From positions 42,745 to 106,744 of the forward strand of contig DASYAT010000066.1 of NCBI GenBank assembly GCA_036501205.1: a DNA stretch of 64,000 bases. Direction: 5' to 3'. Below, piece by piece: positions 978 to 60,784 of this stretch. Position 1 is the first letter of the stretch; each line of letters opens with the position of its first letter. Both the position numbers and the translations under genes were made by a program. The DNA is from Streptosporangiaceae bacterium (GTDB lineage: Bacteria; Actinomycetota; Actinomycetes; Streptosporangiales; Streptosporangiaceae). The notes beneath the pieces are model-generated. The model did not search any database, was not told where the DNA came from, and saw only the letters and a program-made list of their open reading frames with translations.

Positions 978-1463
978 GTGCGCCACATCCGTCAGGCACC
1001 GCCGATCATCCAGGCTGGTACCACCATGCACAAGCCGATCCCGCCTCGGCTTGTGGAGCCCTACCTGACTGGCCGCCGCGCCGTTATAGCCGGATTTGTC
1101 TACCGGCTGGCCGACAGCTCCTTCACCGATCCCGCGGACATCTACCACGCCCTCGATCTGGGCTACGAAGGCTCCGAGTTCCGTTCGGACATGCCCGAGG
1201 TCTACGTCCTGCGTTGGACCGCATCCATCCCGGAAGCCTACGAAGTGCCCTACTCTGTCGAAAGAGGCGGAGACTGGACCGGCAAGCCGCCGTTCACCGG
1301 TACCGGTTACACGTCATGGCCAAGCCATCCGATCCCTGAGTTCTACGTCGATCTAATGCCGATTCCGGTCGGGACAGAGATCTACCGAATCACCCCTGGT
1401 AACGAGGAGTTCATCGCTCGCTACGACGGCCAGGTGTGGTTGCGGCCTGCAGAGGGGAACTGA
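978..1463 (+). CDS. hypothetical protein (161 aa; alternative ATG start at 1026)
   Basis: The ORF has normal high-GC3 codon usage and GGGGAG just upstream. Its TGA stop (1461-1463) lies 2 nt before the ATG of the next gene, which suggests translational coupling. I did not recognise a family with confidence. Confidence 0.6.
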   Translation: MRHIRQAPPIIQAGTTMHKPIPPRLVEPYLTGRRAVIAGFVYRLADSSFTDPADIYHALDLGYEGSEFRSDMPEVYVLRWTASIPEAYEVPYSVERGGDWTGKPPFTGTGYTSWPSHPIPEFYVDLMPIPVGTEIYRITPGNEEFIARYDGQVWLRPAEGN

Positions 1464-1465
1464 CG

Positions 1466-4400: not shown

Positions 4401-5716
4401 CACCGGCCATGCCAGCCACACCGGCCGCGCCAATCGTGCCAGCCATACCGGCCGTGCCAGTCGTGCCTGGCCAGCCAACCGACGACCCGGCTCGACAGGC
4501 CCCAGCCGTACTGAGTCAGCCAGCCGCAGCCGCGCCAGCACCCGCCCGGCCAGAGGCGGCACCCGCCCCGCAGGCCCCAGCGGCCGAACTCGCACCATCC
4601 GAGCCGGCTTCGACCCAGCACGTCGCCGACCCCTCCTCGGCCCCCTACGGCCAGCCAGCACCGTTCCAGACCCCGGGGGCGCCCCACGCAGCGCCGCCCC
4701 ACGCAGCGCCGCCTCACCCAGCGCCGCCCCACCCAGCGTTGCCGAACCTGGCGACCCCGAACCCAGAGCCACCCCACTCCGAGCCGACGCACCAGGCTCA
4801 CCCGCACCAGGCTCAGCCCCACCAGGGCGGCATCTCCGACCCGACCACCCCGGCGCACCCGACCTCGGCGTCCGACCAACCGGTCCCGTCCTGGTCACCG
4901 CAAAACCACCCGCAGAACGAGTCCCATCCCCAGCCTCATGCCGAGCCCCCCTCAGCCGAGCCCCCCTCAGCCGAGCCCCTCTCAGCCGAGCCCCCGCCAG
5001 CCCAGCCCGCGCCCACAACGGCCGGACAGGGCCAGCCGCTCCGGTACGGGCCGTTCATCCCGGACGAGTCCGCCGTCCTCTCATCGAACGGCTCAGGCCT
5101 GGTGAACGGTATCTCGACGGCCCCGTACAACGGCATCTCACCGCCGCCGCTCAACGGCATCGCACCAGTGCCGCTCAATGGCTTCGCCTCGCACCACCCG
5201 CCGACCGTCCAGCTCCCGCTGCCGACCGAGCCCCCGCCGACCGAGCCCCCGCCGATCGAAGCCACCCGGCCGATCGAAGCCACCCGGCCAGTCAACGTCA
5301 CCCCGCCAGTCGACACCGCCCCGGCCGCACCGCCTGCTCCGTGGCCCATTCCACTTGAGCCCCAAACGGCCGCCACCGCCCAACCCGTCCCCCAAGCCGA
5401 CTCGATCCCGTCATCAGAACCAGCCGCGCCGCCCCGCCGCCGCCGCTCCACCAAGCGCCGCCTGCCGACCCAGAAGATCTTCTCCGACCTGGCCGCTCAG
5501 GCCGCGATCCCAGCCGCCGCCTACGCGATCGGCGAGGACGTGGACGGCGCGATGTGCCTGGTCCGCACCGACGAAGGCTTCGAGGTGTTCAACTCCATGG
5601 CGGGTTCGCGCCACGAAGTGAGGCTCTTCCAGGACGAGGAGTCGGCGTACTTCTACCTGTTCGGAGTCCTAGTCGCCGACGCGGTCAGGACCGGCGCATT
5701 GGCTCCCCGCGACTGA
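1466..5716 (+). CDS. very large Pro/Ala/Gln/Ser-rich low-complexity protein with small globular N- and C-terminal domains (hypothetical)
   Basis: Continuous ORF. The preferred start is ATG 1466 (MRYRLLATFQG), 7 nt after GAGGGGA. The N-terminal ~130 aa and C-terminal ~90 aa (..AYAIGEDVDGAMCLVRTDEGFEVFNSMAGSRHEVRLFQDEESAYFYLFGVLVADAVRTG..) have normal composition. The roughly 1200 residues in between are tandem peptide repeats: GLSQPAHAA, PGPAQ, QHAPS, AEPPS, PTEPP, NGIxPxPL. Confidence 0.7.
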   Translation: MRYRLLATFQGAPYEAGVGPDDSDVVLFAACPPPEELKFEPATGHWRKQVSRTAVQTLYESRPIGMFRGERCVVLDDLTDRLHIVYLGHDAIRAAQLGYWEVDRGVFELITPRHEVADIVEQRMPLSTRDDSGPHSRPLPRVPLSDGEEESSRSQPGGYDQLPRVDGLSGYEPDSALTGPSHSGRSGRSDQDILRSGDQSSISIPAVDEPPLPLEAQALRAASTAARRGQKGQSRQTQETRSGRRSQAAIPSQPDPRGQSGPHTQPGVPSQPGQHGQTGQHSQHGQTGQTGQHSQSGRHSQPAAPGQSTAPNQAPEQGQTSPYGQPGQPGQADLYGPDLYGPGSPSRPGVHAQTSPLAQGNPLAQGNLITMTDQPPNALSQPAVAPVHAAAPVHPVAPGQPVASPPAQTLLPSTSTEALSQQAAQPMTATPPGLPGAPTEQSISISQPAHAAGPSAAPVTHPAGLSQPAHPQAPGHPGLGADQTVALSQPAHAAAPMPSEATAGLSQPAHAAPPALAVPDQPAGLSQPAHAAPHRPSQPADESAGLSQSTVLSQSTGLSQPHAVVTAPVQPAGQVNALSQPAGTPAQPIMPGPAVTSPGSAQPGPVPIQAQTAPTDTPAQPASAPVPAAQPDSPHPAAVPATPPVESQVSSPNATNVHSRPSDPVTQAEPPAVQAQVGQAAMPVQPPVAPPAGSHDATNVHSRPTAEPQTEPAADQSHAQLQTAGPAQPAPAQPMPAREALAQPVPAQPGPAQPGPAQPGPAQPGPAQPGPAQPGPGQQPSAGPKAPSSDAPNMQAWPAPMPAPISPAPAGDQAAAASVEAVPTSPHPAPLTSSQPQADASVTTGPQAAPMASMAPAAAPVAPSHPAPADQAAAAAPGPGHPAAPTAQTPQTAPIDRSGLHAQPATGQPDPGSAAGQHAPSQHAPGQHAPSQPTTDQPATAPPTTPIAAQPHPAAQPHPAVSPHPVARHAQSVPSSSLPPAMPATPAAPIVPAIPAVPVVPGQPTDDPARQAPAVLSQPAAAAPAPARPEAAPAPQAPAAELAPSEPASTQHVADPSSAPYGQPAPFQTPGAPHAAPPHAAPPHPAPPHPALPNLATPNPEPPHSEPTHQAHPHQAQPHQGGISDPTTPAHPTSASDQPVPSWSPQNHPQNESHPQPHAEPPSAEPPSAEPLSAEPPPAQPAPTTAGQGQPLRYGPFIPDESAVLSSNGSGLVNGISTAPYNGISPPPLNGIAPVPLNGFASHHPPTVQLPLPTEPPPTEPPPIEATRPIEATRPVNVTPPVDTAPAAPPAPWPIPLEPQTAATAQPVPQADSIPSSEPAAPPRRRRSTKRRLPTQKIFSDLAAQAAIPAAAYAIGEDVDGAMCLVRTDEGFEVFNSMAGSRHEVRLFQDEESAYFYLFGVLVADAVRTGALAPRD
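3698..3795 (+). repeat. 15-nt in-frame tandem repeat (CCCAGCCCGG(G/C)CCAG, about 6-7 units) encoding (PGPAQ)n
   Basis: Read directly in the sequence. Similar codon-level tandem repeats occur at about 2796-3210 (GLSQPAHAA units), 4940-5005 (AEPPS) and 5222-5290 (PTEPP / IEATRP). Confidence 0.85.
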
Positions 5717-11527: not shown

Positions 11528-12636
11528 TGAAAGATCTTTCGCGCGGGTCGAAGGGGGTAGCCCCCCTTCGGGCAAAAATAGTCATTTCCGGGCTCTATAA
11601 GGCATTCGGCAGCCACTGCGTGCTCACCAGCCTCGACCTGGACGTGCCGGCCGGCTCGATCACCGCCATTCTGGGGCCTTCGGGCAGCGGCAAGACGACG
11701 TTGCTGCGGATCCTGGCCGGCTTCGAGCAGGCCGACGCCGGCTCGGTGCGGATCGGGGACGTGGTCGTCGACGGAGACGGCACGCACGTCGCGCCCGAGC
11801 GGCGCCGGATCGGCTACGTGCCGCAGGAAGGCAGCCTGTTCCCGCACCTGAACGTGGCCGCCAACGTCGGGTTCGGGCTGCCATCCAAGCAGCGGTCGAG
11901 CGGTCAGATCGCCGACCTGCTCGACGCCGTCGGCCTCACCGACCTGGGCAAGCGCTATCCGCACGAGCTGTCCGGCGGTCAGCAGCAGCGGGTGGCGCTG
12001 GCCCGCGCTCTGGCGATCCGGCCCGACGTGGTGCTGCTGGACGAGCCGTTCGCCTCGCTGGACGCGCACCTGCGGGCCAGCATCAGGACCGACGTGCAGC
12101 AGATCTTCCGCGCCGCCGGGACGACAGCCGTGCTGGTCACCCACGACCAGGACGAGGCGCTCGCGATCGCCGACCGGGTGGCCGTGCTGCGGGACGGCCA
12201 GATCGCGCAGTACTCGGCGCCGGCCGAACTGTACTCCCGGCCGGTCGACTCCGCGCTGGCCCGATTCGTCGGCGACGCCAACCTGCTCGACGGCATCCGT
12301 CGAGACGGACTCGTCGACACTGTGCTTGGCCGGTTGCCGGTCGAATCGGCTCAAGGGGACGCCGGACCCGGTCCCGGCCCGGTCACCGTGCTGATCCGGC
12401 CCGAGCATATTGAACTGCTAGCGACAGACAGCACTGACGGGGCGGACCCGGTCGGCCGGGTGATCGAGTCCGAGTACTACGGCCACGACGCCGTGCTGCG
12501 GATCAAGCTCGAATCAGCCGAAGGCGAGCCGATCGTCGTGCGCACCACCGGCGACCATCAGCTTCCGGCCGGGTCGCTGGTCGTGTTGCGGGCCAGAGGG
12601 CCAGTACTCACCTGGCCCGCTGACCCCCGTGCTTAA
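11524..12636 (+). CDS. ABC transporter ATP-binding protein (FbpC/PotA-like)
   Basis: Motifs: Walker A GPSGSGKTT, signature LSGGQQQRVALARAL, Walker B VVLLDEPF and H-loop THD. The start was chosen at ATG 11524 (ATGA overlap with the permease stop) rather than the track start at 11254, which runs inside the permease gene. Confidence 0.9.
   Translation: MMKDLSRGSKGVAPLRAKIVISGLYKAFGSHCVLTSLDLDVPAGSITAILGPSGSGKTTLLRILAGFEQADAGSVRIGDVVVDGDGTHVAPERRRIGYVPQEGSLFPHLNVAANVGFGLPSKQRSSGQIADLLDAVGLTDLGKRYPHELSGGQQQRVALARALAIRPDVVLLDEPFASLDAHLRASIRTDVQQIFRAAGTTAVLVTHDQDEALAIADRVAVLRDGQIAQYSAPAELYSRPVDSALARFVGDANLLDGIRRDGLVDTVLGRLPVESAQGDAGPGPGPVTVLIRPEHIELLATDSTDGADPVGRVIESEYYGHDAVLRIKLESAEGEPIVVRTTGDHQLPAGSLVVLRARGPVLTWPADPRA
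11549..11570 (+). repeat. perfect hairpin CGAAGGGGG-TAGC-CCCCCTTCG inside the ATPase N-terminus (variant of the G5/C5 hairpin family)
   Basis: Read directly. It has a 9-bp stem and a 4-nt loop and encodes SKGVAPLR ahead of the conserved ABC domain. Confidence 0.7.
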
Positions 12637-15126: not shown

Positions 15127-15271
15127 CTGCGCCTCTCCTCGAAACCTGTCCTGTCCTTCAGGCTCCGGGGATGCGCGATGAGACGCGCTATCGCGGCCCA
15201 AGGCGACCGCCGAAACGGGCGCGCCGCCGGGTGAGATCCCACCTTCTGGACCTTCCGGCGTGGCCTGCGAG

Positions 15272-15396
15272 CGTGCTACCTCCCATCCGGACTTTTACCG
15301 TCGGTACCGGAATTCCACCGGTTCAACCGGCCGATGGCCTCGGCCGGGTCGCGGACTATCACCGCCGGTTCGGAGTTTCACCGACCCCGGAGCACG
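15272..15396 (-). promoter_or_regulatory. FMN riboswitch (RFN element) aptamer
   Basis: The minus strand reads CGTGCTCCGGGGTCGGTGAAACTCCGAACCGGCGGTGATAGTCCGCGACCCG...GGTGGAATTCCGGTACCGACGGTAAAAGTCCGGATGGGAGGTAGCACG. All conserved RFN segments are present, and the P1 helix is CGTGCT/AGCACG. Confidence 0.9.
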
Positions 15397-15513
15397 CATA
15401 ACAGCTCTTACCAGTATGCCATGCCCGATGCGGGTCCTTGAGATGGGCGGCGGGCGGACGGTGTGGCATTACGCCCGCCCGCCACCGGTCCTAAGCCGGC
15501 GCGGCGCGACTGG

Positions 15514-16857
15514 TCATGCCTGGCGCGGCGCACCGCGGCGTGACAGGACATCGACGCCTGCTGCCGCTAGCAGTACCGCGGCGACCACGACATCAATCCA
15601 CTCGCTCGACACGCCTAGCAAGTAGAGGCCGTTGTAGATGCCACCGATCACCAGGCCGCCGAGTACACCGTGGATGGTCTTGCCCCGGCCGCCGAAGAGA
15701 CTGGTGCCACCGATGACGGCGGCGGCGATCGCGAGCAGCACGTAGCTGTTGGCGGACTTGATGATGTTGGTGGTCAGCGAGACCTGCCAGGAAGCGAACA
15801 GGACGCCAGCGATTCCGGAGGTCAGGCCGGCGAGAACGAAACCCAAGGTTCGGACGCCGGGCAAGCTGACTCCGGCTCGGCGGGCCGCCTCGGGGTTGCC
15901 GCCGATGGCGTACACATAGCGGCCGAAGCGGGTTCGCTGTAGCAGGACCGTCCAGCCAGCGAGCACGACCAGGACGATCACGATGATGTAGGGAACTCCC
16001 TCGATCGTCCCGGAGTGGGCTCGGTTGACGTTGCAGATGGCGACGAGCGCGACTCCCGCCACCGCCATGAGAACGATCTTCATCGCGGTGAGGCTGCGCG
16101 GCGGAGTCTCCAGGCCGTGGCGGCGCCTGCGGGCGGCCTGCGTCCAGAGCCCGGTGCCAGCGGCTCCGACCAGGACGACGAGCAAAACCCAGCTGGTCAC
16201 CGGGCCGATCTGTCCCCAGAAGATGTCATAGAGGACCACCTCGTTGGTGAACCGGGAGTTGCCGATCCCGGCCAGCGACCCGCCGAGGACGATGATCGAC
16301 ACTCCCTCCAGGATCAGCAACCCGCCGAGAGTGACTATGAACGAGGGCATCTTGAGCCGGGCCACGAGTGTGCCCTGAATGGCGCCCCAGGCGGAGCAGG
16401 CGAGCAAGGCCGCTATGATCGCCGCCCACCACGGCCAGTTCGCGCCGTTTGGCTGCACAAGCTCGACGACCACGACGCTGCCAAGCACCATGACCAGGCC
16501 AACGGAGAGGTCAACCTCCGCCAGGAGCAGCACGAAGATCTCGGCCATCGCCAGCACCATGTACACGGTGCTCTGCTCGAAGAGGTTGACCAGGTTCTGC
16601 GGCGACAGGAACTTCGAGTTCGTGATCTGGAAGCTGATGGCGACCACCACGATGGCCATGACCACGGGCAGTACACCGCTGTTGCCGCTGCGAACCCGGA
16701 GCCACCAGGCCCTGGCGTACTGGCCAAGCGACTGAGCGACGAGTTCGGGCGGGACGTCAGTCTCGGCGACCTCAGGGGCGGCGGTGAGGTCAATCGCCAT
16801 CCCGGCGTCCTGCGTCGCGCTCTCTTCCGAATCCGTCGTCACAGGGATGTCAGACAC
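15514..16857 (-). CDS. sugar ABC transporter permease (CUT2, XylH-like), copy 2
   Basis: 447 aa with multiple TM segments. The N-terminal cytosolic extension carries ..SLGQYARAWWLRVRSGNSGVLPV.., as in actinobacterial XylH-type permeases. Confidence 0.85.
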   Translation of the reverse strand: MSDIPVTTDSEESATQDAGMAIDLTAAPEVAETDVPPELVAQSLGQYARAWWLRVRSGNSGVLPVVMAIVVVAISFQITNSKFLSPQNLVNLFEQSTVYMVLAMAEIFVLLLAEVDLSVGLVMVLGSVVVVELVQPNGANWPWWAAIIAALLACSAWGAIQGTLVARLKMPSFIVTLGGLLILEGVSIIVLGGSLAGIGNSRFTNEVVLYDIFWGQIGPVTSWVLLVVLVGAAGTGLWTQAARRRRHGLETPPRSLTAMKIVLMAVAGVALVAICNVNRAHSGTIEGVPYIIVIVLVVLAGWTVLLQRTRFGRYVYAIGGNPEAARRAGVSLPGVRTLGFVLAGLTSGIAGVLFASWQVSLTTNIIKSANSYVLLAIAAAVIGGTSLFGGRGKTIHGVLGGLVIGGIYNGLYLLGVSSEWIDVVVAAVLLAAAGVDVLSRRGAPRQA

Positions 16858-18184
16858 GGGTCACGCTCCCACCTCCGCGCCGTGACAGCACGTCAACCAT
16901 CACTGCTCCCAGGAGCACACCTCCGGGCACGATGTATGCCAGCGGCGTGGACAGTTCTCCCAGGTTGAGAAGGGACACGCCGTAGGCTATGCCGCCGATG
17001 AGCAAGCCGCCGAGAACACCGTGGATCGCCTTGCCCCGGCCGCCGAAGAGGCTGACGCCGCCGATGACGGCAGCGGCCACCGCGTACAGGACGAGTTGGC
17101 CGGGGTCGGCCGTGTTAGTGCTGTACTCACCGAAGAAGAAGGAGCCGAGCAGAATTCCGCCGAGACCGGCGGTCGCGGAGCACAACGCGAAGGCCCAGGT
17201 ACGGATACCAGCGAGGCTGACGCCGGCTCGGCGGGCCGCTTCTGGATTGCCTCCGATGGCATAGAGATAGCGACCGAATCGGGTCCGCTGGAGCACGAGC
17301 GTCCAACCGCCGAGGACGGCCAGGACGATCGGGATCACCCAGGGAATCCCCTCGATCGCCACCAGTGCCCTTCCGCGGTTGATCGAGCAGATCAGTACCA
17401 CTGCCACCCCGACCAGCGCCACCAGCCCGATTCTGATTATCGTCAGGCTGACCGGAGGAGCCGCCAGGCCCTGGCGTCGCCTCGCGGCCGCGCGCAGCCA
17501 GAGCATCGCGCCCGCGATCGCGACCACCACCGCGAGGCCGACCCAGCCGACGACGGGGGCGATCAGCCCCTGGACCATGTCGTAGATGACGCGCTGGTTG
17601 GAGTCCGTAGAGCTGACGCTTACCGAGCCATCGGCTCCGCCGAGCATGACGATGAGAATCCCCGAGAACAGAAGAAACCCGCCCAAGGTCACGACGAACG
17701 ACGGGATCTTGAGCCGAGCAGTCAATGTCCCCTGGAGGGCACCGATGACACCGCAGGCAACGAGCGCGGCGAGCACCGCTGCCCACCACGGCCAGCCCGG
17801 CCCGGGCTGCTGGACGAGCTTGAAGGCGATCACTCCGCCGATCATCGCTACCGCGCCGACCGAGAGGTCGATCTCTCCGAGTAGAAGCACCACCGTCTCG
17901 GCCACCGCCAGCACCATGTACACGGTGCTCAGCCCGAAGACGTAGACGAGGTTGCTCGGACGCAGGAAGGCGTGCTCGGGGGTGATGATCTCGAAGACGA
18001 CGGCGACCAGCACCATGGCCAAGATGACAGGCAGGACACCGCTGTTGCCGCTGCGGACACCGGCCCATGAGGCCCGCACGTACCGGCCGAGCGACTGGGA
18101 GACGTACTCGGGCGGGACAAGGGCCGCTGCGGCCTGGGTGGCGTCGGGCGCCGCGGTTGGGGTCTGGGCGGGGTCCGCGGTCAC
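16850..18184 (-). CDS. sugar ABC transporter permease (CUT2, XylH-like), copy 1
   Basis: 444 aa, a paralogue of the downstream permease, which it overlaps by 8 nt. Confidence 0.85.
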   Translation of the reverse strand: MTADPAQTPTAAPDATQAAAALVPPEYVSQSLGRYVRASWAGVRSGNSGVLPVILAMVLVAVVFEIITPEHAFLRPSNLVYVFGLSTVYMVLAVAETVVLLLGEIDLSVGAVAMIGGVIAFKLVQQPGPGWPWWAAVLAALVACGVIGALQGTLTARLKIPSFVVTLGGFLLFSGILIVMLGGADGSVSVSSTDSNQRVIYDMVQGLIAPVVGWVGLAVVVAIAGAMLWLRAAARRRQGLAAPPVSLTIIRIGLVALVGVAVVLICSINRGRALVAIEGIPWVIPIVLAVLGGWTLVLQRTRFGRYLYAIGGNPEAARRAGVSLAGIRTWAFALCSATAGLGGILLGSFFFGEYSTNTADPGQLVLYAVAAAVIGGVSLFGGRGKAIHGVLGGLLIGGIAYGVSLLNLGELSTPLAYIVPGGVLLGAVMVDVLSRRGGGSVTRV

Positions 18185-20750: not shown

Positions 20751-21455
20751 CTAGTCAGATGCCAGCCGGTAGCCAGCTCGTGGCTGGGTCAGGATCAGCG
20801 GCGGTCCGCCATCATCTTCGAGCTTGGCGCGCAGCCTGCGCACGTAGACGCGGACGTACTCAGTCTCCGTCTCGTAGCCGTGACCCCATACCCGGCGCAA
20901 CAGGTGCGCGTGGGTCAGGAGCTTGCCCCGGTTCGTGACGAGCTCTCTCAGCAGCGCGAACTCAGTCGGCGTCAGGTGCACCCGTTCGCTTTGCCTGAAC
21001 ACCTCCTCCTTGGCCAGGTCGATCCGCAGTTCGCCGATCACGATCAGCTGCGGCGGCATGTCGCTCGGCGCCTGCGGCCTGGTGCGGCGCAGCGTGGCGC
21101 TGATCCTGGCGAGCAGTTCTTCGATGCTGAACGGCTTGGTCATGTAGTCGTCCGCGCCCATATTGAGCGCCGTCACCTTGTCACGCTCGCCGCCCCGGGC
21201 CGACACGACGATGATCGCGACGCCTGACCGCTCGCGCATCTGCCTGCACAGCTCGAAGCCGTCAACCTCGGGCAGCATCAAATCGAGCAGCACGATGTCG
21301 GGCGCTTCGGTGTCCAGCAGTTGCAGCGCGCGTGATCCGTCGGCGGAGACCACGGTGTCGAATCCGCGCACGGCCAGGTTGGACCTGATGAGGTCGACGA
21401 TGTTCAGATCGTCTTCGACTACGAGCGCGCGTGTCCTAGCGACGTGCTCGGCCAC
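20751..21455 (-). CDS. OmpR-family response regulator
   Basis: Receiver domain (..ALVVEDD..VLLDLMLPEVDG..ADDYMTKPF..) plus a winged-helix C-terminus (..VHLTPTEFALLREL..GYRL). The GTG start overlaps the end of the kinase ORF by 20 nt, with GGAGGAGG upstream. Confidence 0.9.
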   Translation of the reverse strand: MAEHVARTRALVVEDDLNIVDLIRSNLAVRGFDTVVSADGSRALQLLDTEAPDIVLLDLMLPEVDGFELCRQMRERSGVAIIVVSARGGERDKVTALNMGADDYMTKPFSIEELLARISATLRRTRPQAPSDMPPQLIVIGELRIDLAKEEVFRQSERVHLTPTEFALLRELVTNRGKLLTHAHLLRRVWGHGYETETEYVRVYVRRLRAKLEDDGGPPLILTQPRAGYRLASD

Positions 21456-23916
21456 GCTCGACCGCCTCCTCCTCGATTGGCAGCGTGACGGCGAAGCTCG
21501 CTCCCGCCGCTGATGGCTTCACCTCGAGTCGGCCGCCGTGCGCGGTCACGATACCGCGCGTGATCGACAAGCCGAGACCTGCGCCTCCGGTCTTGCTGCG
21601 GCGCAACCGCCTCGGTTCGAAGGGCGCGACGGCGACGTCGGCCGGCAAGCCGACCCCCTCGTCGGCGACCGTGATCGACACCTGAGCGCGTCGGGCCGGC
21701 TCGGCCCGCACGACGACCTCGGTACCGGGCGGGTTATGGCCGATGGCGTTCGCTAGCAGGTTAACGAACACCTGCTCAAGCCGGTCGTGGTCGGCCCAGA
21801 TCACCGGCAGGTCAGGCGCGCAGTCGATCTGCACCATGTGCCTTCCGTCCGGCGGCAGGCACGCCGCCGCCGCTTCCAGTACCAGCTTGATATCGCACCA
21901 GTCAGGCTGCAGCCGCAGGATGCCGAGTTCGATGGCGGAGAAATCGAGCAGGTCGTCAACAAGCCGGCCAAGCCGGGCCGACTCGGCCGCGATCCTGGTC
22001 AGGAAACGGTGCTGCGATTCGGCATCCCAGGTGACATCGGGCTGCAGCAGGCTGGAGGCGTAACCGCGGATAGCCGTCAGCGGCGTTCGCAGCTCGTGGC
22101 TGAGCCTGGACAAGAAGTCCCGCTGCAGCTCCTGTGACCGGCGCAGCGCCGTCGCTTCCTGCTGCGCGAGTGCGGTCTGCTCGCGTTCGAGCGCCAGCCT
22201 GAGCGAGTGGGCGGCGTCTTCGACCAGGACAGTTGCCGCCGCGGTCGGCGGTTCTGTACGCCAGCTGGCGAGCAGCGCGCTCCGCCCGCCGGCTGCGGTG
22301 AAGGTCACGGCGAGATTCTGCCGACCGTCATCGCAGCTGACCCATTGAGCCGTGCCGTGCTCCGCCCCGTCTGTCGCCGGCGGCGAGATCAGCCGGGCCG
22401 CACAGAGTTCGACCGCTTCCGCCCGGCCAGGACCGGCTGGCGAGGCGCTGCCGCGACATTGCGGTTCACCCCCGTCCGGGCAGGTCATCAACGTCACCTC
22501 GGAGGCCTGCAGCCCGCGGCACAGTGATTGAAGTGCCAGCGGTATCCCTTCGCTGACCGGGATGGGACCGGCCAGTATCTCGAGCACCTCCCTGATCGTC
22601 TCAAGCACCCGGTTGCGCTCGGTGACCTCGTTGAGCAACTGGTCTCGCTCGATCGCGCTCGCCGCATAGCCGGCGTAGACGGTAACCAGCTCAAGCTGGT
22701 CGCGCTCGGGCCGACCTGGCGTGGCACCGAACCCGGTGATGACGCCGGCCAGCCCGTCCCTCGTCAGCACGGGCACCGACCAGGAGCTCGCGATCCCGGT
22801 AACGGCCGCCAGCCCATTGATCAGCTTCCAGTCAGCCTGCGCGTTCTCGGCTATCACGGTCCGCTCGGTCGCGGCGGCCAGGCCAGCCGGACCGCCGCTG
22901 CTGCCGATCGGCAGCCTTTCCAGGCGGCTAAGCAGTGCGTCGGGCAGCCCAAGCGATGCCGCGCAGGCCAGCTCGCCGCCGACCGCGAGGTGCATGCACA
23001 ACCGCTCGGATCCAAGCGCCGCGCCCAGCGCGGACAAGATCAGCGACAGGCTCGACGACGGATCGGCCGACACCAGCTTGCCGGTCAGGCCGTGCAACCT
23101 GGTGAGCTGGCGTCGGGCCGAGGAGTCGACTTCCTGACCGGATAGCAGCGCTATGACCTCGTCAGGGTGGACCGCCGCCGGGCTGACCTCAGCCACGATC
23201 TGGCCGTGCCTGAGTATCACTATCCGGCTGGCCATCCGGAACATCAGGTCAAGATCGTGAGTTGCGATCACCACCGTGGTCTGGTTCCGCACCTCAGCGA
23301 TGAGTTCCTCGAACTGAATTGCGTGCTTGATGCTGAGCGATTTCGTCGGCTCGTCGAGCAGCAGCAGCGGTGGCCGGTCGGCCAACGCTCTGGCGATCGC
23401 CACGAGCTGGCGCTGCCCACCGGACAGTGACCGAATGCTGCGGGTAGTGTCAGTCAGCGGAATTCCGAGCCCGGACAGGACGGCCGACGCATCGGCGTGC
23501 AGCTTGACTTCGGAAAGCAGCTGGCGGCGACGCTCACGACCCAGCATCAAGTTCGATGCGATGTCGAGGTTGTCGCAGAGCGACAGGTCCTGCCAGACCA
23601 CGCCGACGCCGCACCTCGCGACCGCGAGCGGATCAGCGGGCAGCGGCCGGCCGCGAAATAGAATCTCACCGCGCGAGGGCTTGATGTCGCCGCCGAGCGT
23701 ACGCAGCAGGGTCGTCTTACCGACGCCGCTCTCCCCCGCCAGCGCGACGACCTCGCCCGGCATGATCTTGAGATCTACTCCGTCCAGCGCGCGCACCGAT
23801 CCGAAGCTGACGCCCAGGCGTGACACCGTAACGAGAGGCTCAGCGGGCGTCCGGTCCGCCAGCTCGGTCGGCGGAACATTTGCCAGCGCCAAGTCAGGCA
23901 ATGCGGTCATACCCAC
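21436..23916 (-). CDS. fusion protein: ABC-type ATPase domain - GAF region(s) - histidine kinase (HisKA + HATPase_c)
   Basis: One uninterrupted 826-codon ORF. NBD motifs: GESGVGKTT, LSGGQRQLVAIARAL, LLLLDEPT, ATHD. Then a GAF-like segment (..SLSLILSALGAALGSERLCMHLA..SWSVPVL..GVITGF..). Then the H-box SHELRTPLTAIRGY, the N-box NLLANAIGHN, and the G-boxes DEGVGLP and GGAGLGLSI. I saw no transmembrane segment. Confidence 0.8.
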   Translation of the reverse strand: MGMTALPDLALANVPPTELADRTPAEPLVTVSRLGVSFGSVRALDGVDLKIMPGEVVALAGESGVGKTTLLRTLGGDIKPSRGEILFRGRPLPADPLAVARCGVGVVWQDLSLCDNLDIASNLMLGRERRRQLLSEVKLHADASAVLSGLGIPLTDTTRSIRSLSGGQRQLVAIARALADRPPLLLLDEPTKSLSIKHAIQFEELIAEVRNQTTVVIATHDLDLMFRMASRIVILRHGQIVAEVSPAAVHPDEVIALLSGQEVDSSARRQLTRLHGLTGKLVSADPSSSLSLILSALGAALGSERLCMHLAVGGELACAASLGLPDALLSRLERLPIGSSGGPAGLAAATERTVIAENAQADWKLINGLAAVTGIASSWSVPVLTRDGLAGVITGFGATPGRPERDQLELVTVYAGYAASAIERDQLLNEVTERNRVLETIREVLEILAGPIPVSEGIPLALQSLCRGLQASEVTLMTCPDGGEPQCRGSASPAGPGRAEAVELCAARLISPPATDGAEHGTAQWVSCDDGRQNLAVTFTAAGGRSALLASWRTEPPTAAATVLVEDAAHSLRLALEREQTALAQQEATALRRSQELQRDFLSRLSHELRTPLTAIRGYASSLLQPDVTWDAESQHRFLTRIAAESARLGRLVDDLLDFSAIELGILRLQPDWCDIKLVLEAAAACLPPDGRHMVQIDCAPDLPVIWADHDRLEQVFVNLLANAIGHNPPGTEVVVRAEPARRAQVSITVADEGVGLPADVAVAPFEPRRLRRSKTGGAGLGLSITRGIVTAHGGRLEVKPSAAGASFAVTLPIEEEAVERGRARR

Positions 23917-23987
23917 ATTGTGCTACCTATCCCAAGGTCAGCGACCAGACCCGCCATCCCCAAGCAGCCAGACCAGCCCAACCGTAA

Positions 23988-24257
23988 GGAACCAGACCCA
24001 CCCCAACAACATTCAGCGCCCAAGCGCCGACAGCGGCCTCCGAGGCCCGGAAAGGAACCGGACCACCCCAAACAACATTCAGCACCCGAACCCGGCAGGG
24101 ACTCCGAGGATCGGAAAGGAACCAGACCCACCCCAACAACATTCGGCGCCCAAGCGCCGGCAGCGGCCTCCGGAAATCGGAACGGAACCGGACCCACCCC
24201 AAACTACATTCGGCGCCCAAGCGCCGGCGGGGGGCTCCGGGGGGTCGTCCCCCCGCG
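23988..24257. repeat. four tandem ~65-bp repeats (MIRU/VNTR-like) between ung and the kinase gene
   Basis: Units start at 23988, 24054, 24118 and 24184. Each begins GGAACC(A/G)GACC(C)ACCCCAA(A)C(A/T)ACATTC(A/G)GC. Three contain the mini-hairpin GGCGCCCAAGCGCC. The last unit ends in the GGGGGGTCGTCCCCCC hairpin. Confidence 0.85.
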
Positions 24258-24266
24258 ACAAAAAAA

Positions 24267-24944
24267 TCAGGGCAGCTTCCAGTCCACTTCGGTGCCGCCA
24301 ACTCGCTCCAGGGCGGTGCTGGCCTGGCTGAACGGCCGGGAGCCGAAGAAGCCGGAGTCGGCCGACATAGGGCTCGGGTGCGCCGATTCGATCCGCGGAA
24401 TGTCGCCGAGCAGGGGCGCAAGATTGCGGGCGTCCCGGCCCCACAAGATCGCTACCAGCGGGCCCTGGCGGGCCGCGAGGGCCTTGATCGCCTGCTCGGT
24501 CACCGCTTCCCAGCCCTTGCCTCGATGCGAGCCTGGCTTGCCCGGCTGCACGGTCAGCACCCGGTTGAGCATCAGCACGCCCCGCTCGGTCCACGGGGTG
24601 AGGTCACCATTTGATGGTGTCGGATGGCCGAGATCCGCGGTGTACTCGCGGAAGATGTTCTGCAAGCTGCGCGGTACGGGCCGCACGTCCGGCGCGACCG
24701 AGAAGCTCAGCCCGACCGGATGCCCTGGCGTCGGGTACGGGTCCTGGCCGACGATCAGGACCCGGACGTCATCGAACGGCTGCTTGAAAGCGCGCAGCAC
24801 ATTCTCGCCGGAGGGCAGGTACGCCCGGCCGGCCGCAATCTCGGCCCGCAGGAAATCACCCGCCTCGGCGATCTTGCCGGCCACCGGCTCGAGCGCTCGC
24901 GCCCAGCCTGGATCGATGATTTCTTCGAGCGGGCGTCGGGTCAC
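24267..24944 (-). CDS. ung: uracil-DNA glycosylase (family 1)
   Basis: ..[24 protein letters not shown].. and ..HPSPMS.. are canonical UNG motifs. Confidence 0.95.
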
Positions 24945-25005
24945 GGCAAATCACTGTAGTCCAATTCGTGCCTGCGGCACGGTCATCCGGACATGGAACC
25001 GATTG

Positions 25006-25045
25006 CTGCGGGGGATCCGGGGGGGTCGTCCCCCCGGGCCAGCAC
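25006..25045 (+). repeat. G/C hairpin element CTGCGGGGGATCCGGGGGGGTCGTCCCCCCGGGCCAGCAC (intergenic copy)
   Basis: Read directly. The 6-7 bp G:C stem has a TCGT loop. Flanks are shared with the copies at 61550-61591, 63940-63972 and 35255-35292 (reverse orientation). Confidence 0.75.
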
Positions 25046-25091
25046 TGCGCGAGGCGATCCGGGACATCGTCCCCGGCCGGCACCGCTCCGG

Positions 25092-26387
25092 CTAGCCGGA
25101 TACTTCTGCGATCCGCCTTCCAAGGAAGGCCCGCTCGGCCGGATTCTCGGTCAGCTCGTGCGCAGCCTGGTAGGCGCGCAGCGCCTCGGCCCGTCGCCCG
25201 AGTTGCCGCAGCAGGTCCGCCTTCGCGGCCGGGAGGTAGTGATAACCGTCCAGCCGCCCGTCCGCCTCAAGCCTGGCGAGATCGTCGAGCGCCGCCTGCG
25301 GCCCGCTGACCATGGAGGTCACCACGGCGCGGTTCAGCTCGACCACCGGTGACGGCCAGGCCACCAGCAACCGGTCGTACAGCATCAGCAACTGCGGCCA
25401 GTCCGTCGCCGCATAGCTCGGCGCCTCGCCGTGCACTGCCGCGATCGCGGCCTGCAGGGCGAACCGGCCAGGCCGGCCGCCGCAGCGCAGCGCCTCGGTC
25501 ACCAGTTTGGCGCCCTCGCCGATCTGGGCGGTGTCCCACTGCGACCGATCCTGCTGTTCGAGCAGCAGCAGGTTGCCCGCCGCGTCCGTCCTGGTGCGCC
25601 GCCGGGCGTCGGTGATCAGCATCAGCGCGAGCAGCCCGGCCGCCTCCGGCTCATCTGGCATCAGCTGCCTCAGCACCCTGGCCAGCGAGATCGCCCGGTC
25701 CACCAGGTCATCACGTACCAGCGCGGGCCCGCTCGGCGCGGTGTGACCGGTCGTGAACACCAGATGCATGACGGTCAGCACGGCATCGAGCCGGTCAGGC
25801 AGTTCGGCGACATCCGGTACCCGGTACGCGATCCTGGCCGCCGAGATCTTCTTCTTCGCCCGGGTGACCCTGGCGGCCATGGTCGGCTCAGTCACCAGGA
25901 ATGCCCGCGCGATGTCGCCGGTGGACAGTCCGCACACCAGCCGCAGCGTCAGCGCGACCTGAGCCTCCCTGGCCAGCGCCGGATGGCAGCAGGTGAAGAT
26001 CAGCCGCAACCGGTCATCGGCAATCCCGCTGTCATCACCCGTCTCGCCGACACCAGCCTCGCCAGCCTCCGGCTCGTCGAGCTGGTCAGGAACTAGCAGC
26101 GGCAGCTTCGACCGCAGGGTCCGGTCCCGGCGTAGGCCATCGAGGGCCCGGTGCCTGGCCGCAGTGGTCAGCCATGCCGCTGGGTTACGCGGCACGCCCT
26201 GCTTAGCCCAGGCATCGAGCGCGGCGACGTAGGCGTCCTGCACGCATTCCTCGGCCGCGTCCAGGTCACGGGTGATCCGGGCGGTCGCCGCGAGCACGAA
26301 ACCCCACTCGCGCCTGTGTGCCTCGGCGACGGCGGCGCGGATCGCGTTGCGATCGCGCGCCGACGCCGCCGTGCTGTCTGAGTTCAA
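25092..26387 (-). CDS. ECF-type RNA polymerase sigma factor with long C-terminal TPR-like extension (start uncertain)
   Basis: Sigma region 2 (..ECVQDAYVAALDAWAKQGVPRNPAAWLTT..) and region 4 (..GLSTGDIARAFLVTEPTMAARVTRAKKKI..) are followed by ~230 aa of extension. This type is typically paired with a YciI-family gene, as here. I favour the TTG start at 26387, just after the YciI stop; the track start is 26513. Confidence 0.8.
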   Translation of the reverse strand: MNSDSTAASARDRNAIRAAVAEAHRREWGFVLAATARITRDLDAAEECVQDAYVAALDAWAKQGVPRNPAAWLTTAARHRALDGLRRDRTLRSKLPLLVPDQLDEPEAGEAGVGETGDDSGIADDRLRLIFTCCHPALAREAQVALTLRLVCGLSTGDIARAFLVTEPTMAARVTRAKKKISAARIAYRVPDVAELPDRLDAVLTVMHLVFTTGHTAPSGPALVRDDLVDRAISLARVLRQLMPDEPEAAGLLALMLITDARRRTRTDAAGNLLLLEQQDRSQWDTAQIGEGAKLVTEALRCGGRPGRFALQAAIAAVHGEAPSYAATDWPQLLMLYDRLLVAWPSPVVELNRAVVTSMVSGPQAALDDLARLEADGRLDGYHYLPAAKADLLRQLGRRAEALRAYQAAHELTENPAERAFLGRRIAEVSG

Positions 26388-26409
26388 CGCAGGGCCACAA
26401 GCAAGCCAG

Positions 26410-26757
26410 TCACATACCCGAGGTGTCCATGATCGGACGGACCTCGACTCCGCCGAACCGAGCCGGGCAGAGCTTGGCGATCTCGATCGCGTGATCCAGA
26501 TCGCGAGCCTCAATCAGGTAGAAACCGCCGAGCGCTTCCTTGGTCTCAGCGAACGGGCCGTCGGTCACGACATCGGCCCTCACCGACGTCGCGGTCGCGG
26601 TCGGCTCGAGCGCGTCGCCACCGATGATCTTGCTGCCGTGCTCACCGACCTGCTGGGCGAACCGGGTGTGCGCCTCGCCGACTTCCTTCCAAACCTCCGG
26701 GCCGCCGTTCGCGTAGCCGCTCTCGGCCTCGTAAATCAAGATCGCGTACTGAGCCAT
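26410..26757 (-). CDS. YciI family protein
   Basis: MAQYAILIYE....DGPFAETKEALGGFYLIEARDLDHAIEIA.. is a typical YCII/DGPF domain. AAGGAG lies 7 nt before ATG 26757. Confidence 0.85.
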   Translation of the reverse strand: MAQYAILIYEAESGYANGGPEVWKEVGEAHTRFAQQVGEHGSKIIGGDALEPTATATSVRADVVTDGPFAETKEALGGFYLIEARDLDHAIEIAKLCPARFGGVEVRPIMDTSGM

Positions 26758-33182: not shown

Positions 33183-35306
33183 TCAGATCAGCTCGGCCGG
33201 GTCAAGCTGAACTCGCACCGTTCCTGCCTCCTTGCGCGCGCTCCGATCGGCCAGTCCGGCCCGCAGCGCGATCGCCAGCTCAGTACCGGCTGACCAGGGC
33301 GCCCTGACCAGGTAGCGCACGGTCGGCGAGGACTCGTCAGCCTCATCCAAAGCCACGTCAACCGGGCCGAGAACCTCGCTATCTGACGGCAGGCAAACGG
33401 CGCCGAGCAAGCCAGTTACCGCGCCGGCGGGCCCGGACAGCGCCGCCATCCTGACCGCCGGCGGGAACCGCAGCTGGGTCCGCTCCGCCAGTTCCCGGTC
33501 GGCGTGGGTGGCCGCGTCCCACCGGATCATCGCCTGCACCGCGAGCACGGCCGGGTCAGCCATCAGCACGACCTTGCCCCCGGCTGGCCCGGGGCGAACC
33601 AGAGCGGCCGCGTTCATCCACCGGCGCAGCGCCTCCTGCGCCGCACGCAGGCTCGGGCGGCCGAGCAGCGCCCAGCCGTCAAGCAGCACCGCCGCTGCGT
33701 AGCCGTCCGGCGCGGGCGGCTCGGCACCGGGTGTCGCGATGACCAGCGCTGGCTCGGCCCCGACCCGGCGCAGCACGTTCGCCCCGCTTGAAGTCAGCAC
33801 CGGCACACCGGGAAACGCCCGGCCGAGCTCCTCAGCGGTCCGCCGAGCACCGGTGACCAGCGCCCGCAGCCCAGCGTTCCCGCAGGTCACGCACGTCTGC
33901 TGCCATGCGGCCTGCGGATTGCCGTCCGCAGACCGCACGGCCGGTGCTTGCCCGCCCAGGGTCAGCCCGCACCAGCCGCAGCGCAAAGGCTGCCCTGGCC
34001 CTGGCAGCGCCACCGGCCCGGCACAGGTACCGCACCTGATCCGCTCACCGCAGCGCCGGCAGGCCACCGCGGCCAGGTAGCCGCGCCGCGGCACCTGGAC
34101 CAGCACCGGCCCGGCCCCCAGCGCGTCCCTGGCGGTCCGCAGCGCCAACCCGGGAATCCGCGCCGTCCGCGCCGCTTCGTCCCTGGCCAGTTCGGAATCA
34201 TCACCGGCGGTGCGGACGGCAGGCGCGAGTTGCCTGATCGTTTCCCGCGAGGCCACCAGCGGCCGAGCCCAGTCACTGGCCACCAGCGCCGCGGCCTCGG
34301 CGGTGCGGGCGAACCCGCCGATCAGCATCGCCGCCGCTTGCCGGTGCGCCCTGAGCAGCAAGACGTCCCTGGCGTGCGGATAAGGCGCCCGAGGCTCAGC
34401 GTGCAGATCGTCGCCATCGTCCCAGATCACTGCGAGCCCCAGCTCGGCTACCGGGGCGAACATGGCCGACCGGGCGCCGACGACGACGCTCACCTGCCCG
34501 CGCAGCACGGACAGCCAGCGGCGATACCGCTCGGCCGGTCCGAGCTGGGCGGCGAGGCTGACGAACGCTTTCTCCCCCAGGACCGCCGTCATCGCGTCGG
34601 AGACCAGCTCCAGATCGCGGGCGTCGGGCACTACGACGAGCGTTCCGCGCCCGGCGGCGAGCGTAGCGGCGGCCGCCTGAGCGATCTCGACGGGCCAGTC
34701 CTGGCCGGGCAGCGCCGCCCAGACGCCGTGCGGCGTCCGGCCGGCCGCGACCGCGGCCAGGAACGACGGCCCGGTCGGATAGCGCCCCCACAGCCCGGGT
34801 CCATCGCCAGCCGGGGCCGGGCCCGGCGGCGAGTCCGGCTGGCCGCCGGAGCCATCCTCAGCGGCCGCGGCCGCCCCCTCAGCCTCGGCCTTAGCGTGCC
34901 GAGGCGGAATCGCCAGCCGCAGCACGTCGGCAACGGTCCCCCCGTACCGGTCCGCGACCGCGCGGGCAAGCCCGGCGATCTCCGGGGTCAGGACGGGTTC
35001 GCTGGAGACGACCCGGTCAAGGAAGGCGATGCGACCCTGGTGGTTGCTTTCTCCCACTCGCTCGATCAGAAAGCCAGCGGTAAGCCGACCAGAAAACCTG
35101 ACCTTAACCCGGCATCCGGGCTTTGCCTGGTCAGTCAGGCCCTCAGGGACCAGGTAGTCGAAAAACCGGTCAAGGTGCGGCAGCGCGACATCGACGGCAA
35201 CCCGGGCGACCGGCAACTCGGCCGCCGCAACCGGCTCGGCCTTGCGTGCCCGCGGTGCTTGCCCGGGGGGACGACCCCCCGCAGCCCCCCGCGATGCCGA
35301 TGTCAC
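33183..35306 (-). CDS. priA: primosomal protein N' (PriA), actinobacterial type
   Basis: Length, position upstream of metK, and the Cys-rich zinc region (CRRCGERIRCGTCAG...CGWCG...CVTCGN) fit PriA. Classical helicase motifs I and II are not evident. Confidence 0.85.
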   Translation of the reverse strand: MTSASRGAAGGRPPGQAPRARKAEPVAAAELPVARVAVDVALPHLDRFFDYLVPEGLTDQAKPGCRVKVRFSGRLTAGFLIERVGESNHQGRIAFLDRVVSSEPVLTPEIAGLARAVADRYGGTVADVLRLAIPPRHAKAEAEGAAAAAEDGSGGQPDSPPGPAPAGDGPGLWGRYPTGPSFLAAVAAGRTPHGVWAALPGQDWPVEIAQAAAATLAAGRGTLVVVPDARDLELVSDAMTAVLGEKAFVSLAAQLGPAERYRRWLSVLRGQVSVVVGARSAMFAPVAELGLAVIWDDGDDLHAEPRAPYPHARDVLLLRAHRQAAAMLIGGFARTAEAAALVASDWARPLVASRETIRQLAPAVRTAGDDSELARDEAARTARIPGLALRTARDALGAGPVLVQVPRRGYLAAVACRRCGERIRCGTCAGPVALPGPGQPLRCGWCGLTLGGQAPAVRSADGNPQAAWQQTCVTCGNAGLRALVTGARRTAEELGRAFPGVPVLTSSGANVLRRVGAEPALVIATPGAEPPAPDGYAAAVLLDGWALLGRPSLRAAQEALRRWMNAAALVRPGPAGGKVVLMADPAVLAVQAMIRWDAATHADRELAERTQLRFPPAVRMAALSGPAGAVTGLLGAVCLPSDSEVLGPVDVALDEADESSPTVRYLVRAPWSAGTELAIALRAGLADRSARKEAGTVRVQLDPAELI
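35255..35292 (-). repeat. G/C hairpin element copy (reverse orientation) overlapping the priA 5' end
   Basis: gtgcttgcccggggggacgaccccccgcagccccccgc. On the priA coding strand it encodes ..RGAAGGRPPGQAP... Confidence 0.7.
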
Positions 35307-42485: not shown

Positions 42486-42705
42486 ACTTTGTCACCGGCT
42501 AGACGCGACCTCTCATCGGTTGGAGCGGACTTCTCATCGGTTGTCGGCCACTTCCCATCGGTTAGACCGAAAACTTATCCGATATGCGGCATTTGCAACC
42601 GGGGTAATCATAGGGAAGTGCTCGCAACCGATGAGAAGTGGCGTCTAACCGATGAGAAGTGGGCTGGCGGGACCGCCGCAAACCCGGCGAAACACCCATC
42701 GGCCC
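42486..42705. repeat. iteron/inverted-repeat element, copy A
   Basis: Direct 21-nt units ACTTC(T/C)CATCGGTT.. are at 42486, 42508, 42529 and 42550. Inverted units (C/T)AACCGATGAGAAGT are at 42625 and 42646, plus a degenerate one at 42604. The core is ttatccgatatgcggcatttgcaaccggggtaatcat. Copy B is at 59008-59245. Confidence 0.8.
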
Positions 42706-56287: not shown

Positions 56288-56311
56288 CCGCCTAGGTTAT
56301 CGTCTAGGGCC

Positions 56312-60780: not shown

Positions 60781-60784
60781 GTTC

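Follow-up and report, generated by a model that had tools for sequence, protein, structure and literature searches.

What is the short hairpin of G and C runs that recurs along a 64-kb stretch of a Streptosporangiaceae genome, and what do the two copies on either side of the gene ung mean for that gene? The stretch, called the window below, comprises 64,000 nucleotides of contig DASYAT010000066.1 with a G+C content of ~69%, and it holds 8-9 copies of the repeat against ~0 by chance. I read these copies as members of a non-coding, non-autonomous family of short dispersed repeats with a unit of 39-42 bp, a reading that I consider probable as a whole while leaving appreciable room for doubt. The unit has been copied to new chromosomal sites, where it was then duplicated head to tail or lost, so that copy number varies in the manner of a variable-number tandem repeat (VNTR). 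Copies checked inside genes sit in linkers, loops and protein termini, and others accumulate in the spacers that follow stop codons.

The repeat unit and where it is found

A first-pass annotation of the window had claimed that several of its copies share extended flanks and are not chance G/C runs. Every copy that it listed is there, at or within a few bases of its place, with the core GGGGG(G)TCGTCCCCC(C) at each coordinate. The pattern GGGGGNNNNNNCCCCC (GGGGGN6CCCCC) has 4 matches versus 0.26 expected in the window, and the 14-mer GGGGGTCGTCCCCC with at most two mismatches has 13 strand-matches versus 2.3 expected, a count that none of 100 shuffles reached. A left-flank pattern, GCGGGGGN{3,7}GGGGGTCGTCCCCC, and a right-flank pattern, TCGTYCCCN{2,8}GSCMAGCAC, each match the window four times versus 0.00 expected, and the shared flanks are therefore real.

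The annotation had also proposed a copy-pasted unit of 40-45 bp and named a wider search as its test. An exact scan for the left-flank pattern, taking one genome per species, found the same unit with the same flanks at at least 120 loci in many Actinomycetota genomes, which bears out the copying but not the size, since the unit measures 39-42 bp. Among the matches listed, nearly all are from Actinomycetota, including many Streptosporangiaceae and Trebonia metagenome-assembled genomes (MAGs), Trebonia kvetii 15TR583 and five Actinomadura isolates; Spirillospora, Nocardiopsis, Propionibacteriaceae (Enemella, Microlunatus), Acidimicrobiia and one Streptomyces also appear among them. An assembly artefact is an unlikely source of the copies, given that isolates carry them too and that they appear in Illumina and long-read assemblies made independently. 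The scan pattern has 0 matches in the 2.9 million viral contigs of IMG/VR, and a BLAST search of a two-unit consensus against the PLSDB plasmids returned no match, although the low-complexity filter may have lowered its sensitivity; I rejected carriage by phage or plasmid on these two results. One MAG, MFD09779.bin.1.245, holds arrays of its own subfamily (spacer TCGAA, tail TGGGCA) at L049 2200-2815, L079 6447-7052 and L092 6307-6797. These arrays are intergenic, run to as many as nine units (in L049) and are interleaved with higher-order repeats of 120-150 bp; they suggest genome-specific bursts.

An alignment of the window copies with 180 copies elsewhere gives the consensus (N)GC-G5-7-(TTCC-like, 3-6 nt)-G5-7-TCGT-C5-7-GGGC(C/T)AGCAC-(N)GC, ~39-42 bp long, which can be summarised as (N)GC-G6-TTCC-G6-TCGT-C6-GGGCCAGCAC-(N)GC. 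The unit is thus a short imperfect palindrome present in many copies, with a G:C stem of 6-9 bp and a loop of 4 nt. Its tail, GGGC(C/T)AGCAC, is kept across unrelated MAGs although the search pattern did not demand it. The loop is TCGT in ~49 further copies and a single-base variant of it in ~9, one forced TCGT copy having been excluded for each of 121 sources (the 120 loci and the window). The stem mostly reaches 1-4 pairs past the G:C run, and the identities of these extra pairs differ between copies (CC/GG, CAA/TTG, TGT/ACA, GTTTGA/TCAAAC). Read by hand, all six frames of the consensus are free of stop codons, and since the inserted length is 39 bp or a multiple of it, copies can persist in genes as insertions of 13 amino acids. 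A subfamily found in L007, L055, L065, L069, L082 and L090 has an extra upstream C-run in its left flank (CCCCCC-AGGAGC-GGGGGGG-TCT-GGGGGGG-TCGT-CCCCCC), making two adjacent hairpins of opposite polarity, and further subfamilies carry GAGCGGAGCGA-like or GCCGAGCGGNCGGATG extensions.

A profile hidden Markov model (HMM), built on copies from other genomes and then run on the window, detects seven copies there: 24225-24263, 25008-25047, 35254-35294 (reverse), 56858-56893 (reverse), 61552-61591, 63935-63958 and 63970-63997. With the additions discussed below, the window copies are as follows.

Copy A, 24226-24257, plus strand: GGC-GGGGGG-CTCC-GGGGGG-TCGT-CCCCCC-GCG; intergenic; HMM score 29.2 bits
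Copy B, 25006-25048, plus strand: full unit, CTGCGGGGGATCCGGGGGGGTCGTCCCCCCGGGCCAGCACTGC; in the spacer between the stop of the ECF sigma factor gene (25092) and the ung start (24944)
Copy B', 25049-25090, plus strand: degenerate tandem partner of copy B, GCGAGGCGATCCGGGACATCGTCCCCGGCCGGCACCGC; begins 4 nt past the sigma-factor stop
Copy C, 35251-35294, minus strand: CGCGGGGGGCTGCGGGGGGTCGTCCCCCCGGGCAAGCACCGCG; between the metK stop (35316) and the conserved PriA core
Copy D, 56850-56893, minus strand: degenerate; a 39-bp in-frame insertion in a polyprenyl synthase gene (56309-57433, plus strand)
Copy E, 61550-61588, plus strand: degenerate, with a decayed hairpin, CTGCGGGGGATTCCGGGTGGTCGTTCCCCTTGGCCAGCA; a 39-bp in-frame insertion (LRGIPGGRSPWPA) in thiO (60758-62032)
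Copy F1, 63931-63969, plus strand: first of two tandem 39-bp units in a PknB-like Ser/Thr kinase gene (start ~63087, plus strand)
Copy F2, 63970-64000, plus strand: second tandem unit, cut by the window end; expected end ~64008; complete at 2201-2239 of L001
TAGC-loop hairpin, 11538-11577, plus strand: GCGCGGGTCGAAGGGGGTAGCCCCCCTTCGGGCAAAAATAG; in the spacer after an ABC permease stop (11527)

Copy A lacks the GGCCAGCAC tail and abuts a 66-bp tandem repeat; 12 nt separate the end of its hairpin from the stop codon of ung (24267-24269, minus strand). Copy B' was missing from the first-pass list and is added here. Copy C lies either in the metK-priA spacer or, if the GTG at 35306 is the start codon, within the variable N-terminal tail of PriA, of which it would supply 13 amino acids. 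Copy D encodes 13 residues (G-P-G-G-R-P-A-G-T-P-R-E-A) between the GQFLDL and YKSAKY motifs of the synthase, and F1 and F2 encode two 13-residue repeats, SRGSSPSGQHSGG, in the juxtamembrane linker directly after the kinase domain. Copy E no longer folds, and the thiO gene that holds it lies downstream of a thiamine pyrophosphate (TPP) riboswitch. The hairpin at 11549, which the annotation had listed as a variant with a TAGC loop, is present but is not picked up by the profile HMM; it matches, almost base for base, the unit GGCGGGGGGTCGAAGGGGGGTCGTCCCCCCTGGGCAAGTAG of the 'TCGAA' subfamily of L049 and is probably a diverged member of the family. The window has near-identical counterparts in two JGI metagenome contigs (99.6-99.8% identity), one of which (L001, 99.6%) runs past the window end.

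The positions of the 180 profile-HMM matches with E < 0.01, in the window and the 120 loci, agree with the first-pass claim that copies occur on both strands, between genes and inside them. Long open reading frames (ORFs) with high G+C at the third codon position (GC3) span 63-77 of the ~180 copies (~35-45%). Among coding copies the two orientations are nearly balanced (33 versus 30) and translation uses all six frames, with GGRPP, G(S)SSP, GVVPP, GGTTP, GDDPP and GGRPP(Q) as the resulting peptides; with six different versions, no one peptide is selected. Nine intragenic cases were verified through orthologs or Pfam, which in five ORFs places the copies between the domains of a UvrD-like helicase, NadE, two molybdenum hydroxylases and FbiC. 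A further 36 copies, of 175 elsewhere than the window, lie within 60 nt past a stop codon, again with unbiased orientation (19 versus 17). Neighbouring copies less than 200 bp apart are direct in 54 cases and inverted in none, and their spacing clusters at 39-44 bp.

Gain and loss at orthologous sites

If the unit has been copied into its present sites, relatives should preserve some of those sites empty. I compared the window with syntenic contigs of relatives at 85-92% nucleotide identity: L123 and L126 (92.5%), L124 (~85%) and L125 and L127 (~85%). The numbers of copies at four sites are as follows.

thiO: window 1 (decayed); L123/L126 0; L124 1; L125/L127 1 (decayed, partly expanded)
PknB-like kinase linker: window 2; L123/L126 0; L124 1; L125/L127 1
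Polyprenyl synthase: window 1; L123/L126 1; L124 site not covered; L125/L127 0
PyrR C-terminus: window 0; L123/L126 0; L124 site not covered; L125/L127 2

The comparison of orthologs that the first-pass annotation had proposed thus finds copies missing at the exact sites in close relatives, at ThiO, PknB, the polyprenyl synthase, PyrR and both flanks of ung. The thiO of the window has exactly 39 extra bases, which are absent from its closest ortholog (L123, 91% amino acid identity) and from 22 other orthologs but are inserted at the identical site in L124 and L125. The kinase linker has two copies in the window and in L001, one in L124 and L125, and none in L123. The 39-bp insertion in the synthase is shared by the window and L126 and is lacking in L127. 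In L127, PyrR carries two 39-bp units immediately before its stop codon, and the ATGA overlap with pyrB is intact. These patterns are incongruent, because L123/L126 lack the ThiO and PknB copies but have the synthase copy, whereas L125/L127 show the reverse. Presence patterns that conflict between sites imply repeated gain or loss on a short evolutionary scale.

In the four pairs of empty and filled sites, the inserted block is always 39 bp or a multiple of it, with a short, imperfect direct repeat similar to C-N-G-C-G-G at its borders. At thiO the empty site reads GGC|TTGCC and the filled site GGC[CTGC]GGGG...CCAGCA[CTGC]C; at the kinase the empty site reads CC[CAACGG]CTCGG and the filled site [CAACGG]...[CAGCGG]...[CAGCGG]CTCGG.

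Junctions and unit ends that share short homology would also be expected if nothing had moved at all, that is, if minisatellites of G-runs and C-runs had arisen independently by slippage in a 70% G+C genome, or if a Gly/Pro-rich peptide had been selected. Direct tandem arrays of varying copy number do exist, and the genome is rich in other short tandem repeats. However, unrelated loci and many genomes share a 40-nt sequence, non-repetitive loop TCGT and tail GGGCCAGCAC included, for which 0.00 matches would be expected by chance in the window, and the six frames yield different peptides (GGRPP, GSSP, GVVPP, GTTP, GDDPP) with none singled out. I therefore regard an origin without mobility as very improbable.

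A second alternative holds that the copies are selected functional hairpins, either terminators recognised by a factor or stabilisers of mRNA 3' ends in the manner of REP stabilisers, whose conservation would reflect protein binding to the stem-loop. Each of the three window copies that are clearly intergenic follows the stop of a co-oriented gene by 4-40 nt, and the enrichment after stops extends to 36 of the 175 copies elsewhere. Conservation is strong in both loop and flanks, and compensating pairs maintain the stem. There is also a precedent in the TRIT motif (Tuberculosis Rho-independent terminator) of Mycobacterium (PMC3152330). Against this, at least one third of the copies are in coding regions, in both orientations and all frames; copies are dispensable, being missing in close relatives; they have no U-tract, and the T-run of copy A is on the wrong side; and copies inside genes decay, the ThiO copy no longer folding. 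What favours such hairpins is, moreover, compatible with a selfish origin followed by occasional co-option. Selected hairpins as the explanation of the family thus seem rather unlikely, and I retain the reading of a dispersed repeat.

The ung locus, riboswitch models and other features of the window

What, then, of the two copies around ung? The gene (24267-24944) is on the minus strand, as are its neighbours on either side, a gene for an extracytoplasmic function (ECF) sigma factor (25092-26513) and one for an ABC/GAF/histidine kinase (21436-23916). The first-pass annotation had observed that two copies in the same orientation bracket ung. This is true, and direct-orientation copies 10 nt past the 3' end of the gene and ~60 nt before its 5' end could in principle delimit a mobile cassette or composite element carrying ung. 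However, the order YCII, ECF sigma factor, ung, ABC/GAF/histidine kinase is kept in three relatives (L128-L130, with Ung 85-92% identical) that have no copy of the repeat in either ung spacer, and the remaining window copies flank nothing in particular. A composite element around ung was rejected on this conserved order, and I give the cassette next to no chance. Because relatives keep the gene order without the flanking copies, the bracketing is incidental and has no special meaning. The two copies are independent, lineage-specific insertions into two spacers, and they neither regulate nor mobilise ung.

The upstream spacer bears on regulation. It measures 32 bp in L128 versus 147 bp in the window. 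A ACTACAGTGATTTGCCGTG block before and including the GTG start of ung (24925-24965) is conserved in L128-L130, and from its sequence I take ACTACAGTGATTTGCCGTG for a putative -10 box of an ung mRNA that would be leaderless, beginning at that GTG. Copies B and B' are probably not in the ung leader, since the block lies downstream of them. A conserved GGTAGCACAATGTG, similar to ACTACAGTGATTTGCCGTG, precedes the next gene.

Both spacers also hold other repeats. Between ung and the ABC/GAF/kinase gene, a spacer of 350 bp, a 66-bp tandem repeat at 23986-24239 (3.9 copies, 83% match, each unit with a GGCGC-CCAA-GCGCC hairpin) takes up most of the sequence and leads straight into copy A. The same spacer is 49-147 bp long in the relatives, which lack the 66-bp repeat; L130 has a different, 21-bp repeat there. 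In L129 (1748-2501) the sigma-ung spacer is 752 bp long and is filled by another palindromic repeat (CCCCGGCTGTGGCACATCACCGGGG variants) and short tandem repeats. It seems that several small repeat families have the sigma-ung spacer as a hot spot.

The opposite strand of the unit raises a different possibility. It reads GGGGGG-ACGA-CCCCCC and contains GGGGACGACCCC, the hairpin printed in papers on guanidine-II structures. If the hairpins were guanidine-II (mini-ykkC) riboswitches, two minus-strand hairpins with ACGR loops would dimerise on guanidine and control a downstream gene such as ung. The Rfam model Guanidine-II (RF01068) indeed matches F1 and F2 end to end (63945-64000, minus strand) at 34.6 bits versus a gathering score of 32, and four further tandem pairs at other loci exceed this threshold at 34.8-39 bits (L086 2452-2507, L009 93-145, L045 5210-5261 and L025 769-824). 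A Guanidine-II element is recognised by its place in the 5' untranslated region (5' UTR) of a guanidine-related gene, beside the ribosome-binding site (PMC1950547). Nothing of the kind is found here. The F1 and F2 match, the best in the window, is antisense to and inside the coding sequence of the PknB-like kinase, and the other above-threshold pairs are at gene 3' ends, between convergent genes or inside ORFs. Copies B and B' upstream of ung reach 19.8 bits on the minus strand, below the threshold, and they lie upstream of the conserved putative -10 box and leaderless GTG and are absent in relatives. No SugE/Gdx homolog was found near any copy, and orientation relative to genes is random. The riboswitch reading was rejected on the genomic context of the Rfam matches, and I hold it to be highly improbable; because that context is wrong, the matches are treated as false positives caused by the repeat.

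The likeness itself has a simple form. On one strand the repeat unit is a G:C stem with an ACGA tetraloop, and units 39-42 nt apart fit the covariance model. The stems of the repeat differ from those of Guanidine-II in being invariant G and C runs that do not covary, and the copies differ in their place, within or antisense to coding sequences or at 3' ends, in random orientation and with no guanidine-related genes near. Tandem copies are probably mislabelled as Guanidine-II in the automated annotation of high-G+C Actinomycetota. Two riboswitches in the window are genuine: a flavin mononucleotide (FMN) riboswitch at 15269-15399 on the minus strand (97 bits) and the TPP riboswitch at 60677-60789 on the plus strand (55.9 bits), directly 5' of thiO-thiS-thiG.

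Other features of the window stand apart from the repeat. Two adjacent minus-strand ORFs of 447 and 444 amino acids (15514-18184), with 70-79% DNA identity at an offset of 1351-1363 bp, represent a gene that was duplicated in tandem; they lie downstream of the FMN riboswitch region. Two loci of ~210 bp (42489-42701 and 58989-59242), 16.5 kb apart and ~80% alike, have 21-bp direct repeats (CATCGGTTGGACGGGACTTCC, 2.5-3.4 copies) facing an inverted block (56-nt arms, 84% complementary), and could be another repeat family or an operator array. An ORF of 1426 codons at 1436-5716 is full of tandem repeats of 9, 15, 18 and 27 bp (e.g. CCGGGCCAGCCCAGC x 10.6), with G+C up to 73% and a strong negative GC skew; its product looks like a low-complexity protein rich in Pro, Ala and Gln.

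Spread of the repeat and comparison with known systems

How might such a unit spread? The proposal I favour is that a trans-acting activity would recognise the hairpin with its conserved loop and flanks and drive its copying, probably on single-stranded DNA at replication, in a way that would resemble systems of the repetitive extragenic palindrome (REP)/REP-associated tyrosine transposase (RAYT) or IS200/IS605 type. Slippage in replication at the short C-N-G-C-G-G end homology may then produce both tandem gain and precise loss. The elements would be mainly selfish or neutral passengers, and intergenic copies may secondarily serve as 3'-end hairpins, as proposed for REPs and TRIT.

Several observations weigh against the reading of a copied, dispersed repeat and should be taken together. 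The closest relative (L123) lacks two insertions that look old, those in ThiO and PknB, which requires either precise loss or allele replacement by recombination, and fits either. The first-pass annotation had suggested looking for target-site duplications and an associated transposase, and neither came to light. Left and right C-N-G-C matches average 2.32 of 4 versus 2.21 ± 0.06 when shuffled (~1.8 standard deviations; 50 single copies), barely above the shuffled value, and the motif is therefore mostly the element's own termini. No single-tyrosine (Y1) transposase of the IS200/RAYT type was found by tblastn in ~1.1 Mb around the copies, where IS200 TnpA and an E. coli RAYT as queries gave no match below E = 0.26. 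Nor does any neighbouring gene family recur beyond common paralogs in an all-against-all clustering of 883 ORFs from the 120 loci; the recurrent families are ABC ATPases, aldehyde dehydrogenases, short-chain dehydrogenases and acyl-CoA dehydrogenases. Terminal inverted repeats are lacking as well: complementarity is confined to the central palindrome and does not extend to the two ends, GCGGGGGG... and ...GGCCAGCAC. The compensatory-pair signal of the stem (1.07 extra pairs beyond the G:C run versus 0.57 ± 0.06 with shuffled flanks) may be inflated by the relatedness of subfamilies. The folding energy of the hairpin is not significant against dinucleotide shuffles (z -2.8 to +1.2), because any sequence of G-runs and C-runs folds well at such composition; the signal of the repeat is its recurrent sequence, not the stability of its hairpin. 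Finally, copy density is known solely as 8-9 copies per 64 kb.

A bolder combination would make these elements an active, phylum-wide module whose mode of spread would be new for bacteria, without a dedicated transposase and, for example, through template switching or capture at replication forks or breaks, and that writes 13-residue linkers into proteins; its RNA would be a working guanidine-II-type hairpin, and riboswitch and repeat would share an origin. Were this so, hundreds of transcripts per cell could form guanidine-dependent loop-loop dimers. I find this joint proposal quite improbable. The dispersed, non-autonomous repeat that I prefer has consequences of its own. It would extend selfish DNA inside protein-coding genes, classically a feature of Rickettsia, to abundant free-living soil Actinomycetota, with cultured hosts at hand for the study of mechanism (Trebonia kvetii, Actinomadura). 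The repeat supplies enzymes and kinases with small peptide insertions, and the alleles with 0, 1 or 2 copies in conserved genes are natural markers for strain typing.

Which known system does the repeat resemble? The first-pass annotation had pointed to REPs, to miniature inverted-repeat transposable elements (MITEs) and especially to Rickettsia palindromic elements (RPEs). The last comparison holds in that copies are inserted in frame with all frames open, whereas the copies lack the GTAG motif and inverted pairs of REPs and the terminal inverted repeats of MITEs. A MITE was rejected for want of terminal inverted repeats and because the test for target-site duplication was non-significant. 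A CRISPR-repeat origin, to which a loose likeness of C-run-GCCAGC-G-run to type I-E repeats might point, is unsupported, with no spacers and no Rfam CRISPR-DR match.

REPs have a 5' GTAG/GTGG motif and typically form inverted pairs next to a RAYT gene. The repeat is like REPs, and like their arrangements as REP doublets forming hairpins (REPINs) and bacterial interspersed mosaic elements (BIMEs), in being a short (20-40 bp), G+C-rich, imperfect palindrome in many copies, often just past stops and with compensating changes in its stem. It differs in its 5' end, (N)GCGGGGGG and not GTAG, and a REPIN/BIME organisation was rejected because none of the 54 neighbouring pairs is inverted. Overlap with coding sequence is rare among REPs (PMC12306157), whereas many copies of the repeat are intragenic. 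The analogous TRIT, described in the RNIE paper (PMC3152330), is a highly conserved palindrome of which one actinobacterial genome has ~150 copies; it gathers at gene ends, partly overlaps the last part of coding sequences, is effectively bidirectional and is reportedly limited to Mycobacterium, with a tight position of ~-8 from stop codons. The repeat is likewise a conserved palindrome frequent near gene ends in Actinomycetota, and differs from TRIT in that it occurs in Streptosporangiales, Propionibacteriales, Acidimicrobiia and others, deep in genes and in tandem arrays.

Mycobacterial interspersed repetitive units (MIRUs) are actinobacterial units of 40-100 bp at many loci, in direct arrays whose copy number varies between strains. 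They are described as intergenic within operons, are not known to be built on a conserved perfect hairpin and can preserve overlapping stop and start codons. The repeat shares with MIRUs and VNTRs its head-to-tail arrays with copy-number polymorphism (PknB 0/1/2, PyrR 0/2) and its periods of 39-44 bp, and at the pyrR-pyrB ATGA junction of L127 it leaves the overlapping stop and start intact as a MIRU does. It differs from MIRUs in having at least one third of its copies inside genes and a G6-N4-C6 stem-loop as its core.

RPEs, finally, are dispersed palindromic repeats of ~100-150 bp that are known only from Rickettsia, AT-rich intracellular Alphaproteobacteria, between genes and in frame within them. 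Every reading frame of an RPE is open, a tolerated peptide is added to the host protein, and orthologs differ in presence and absence; RPEs are not known to have a transposase of their own. The repeat is similarly palindromic, dispersed between and inside genes and absent at orthologous sites, and it too is inserted in frame with all frames open and several used. Its length and hosts set it apart from RPE-1 to RPE-8, being 39-42 bp long, extremely G+C-rich, arranged in head-to-tail arrays and carried by free-living Actinomycetota. The full-text literature searched does not describe it, and a description may exist in journals outside that coverage. It is apparently an undescribed selfish repeat of the REP/RPE/MIRU-like sort. 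Its kind, the short dispersed palindromic repeat, is known; what stands out is an RPE-like invasion of genes in free-living Actinomycetota, by a unit that mimics a riboswitch model.

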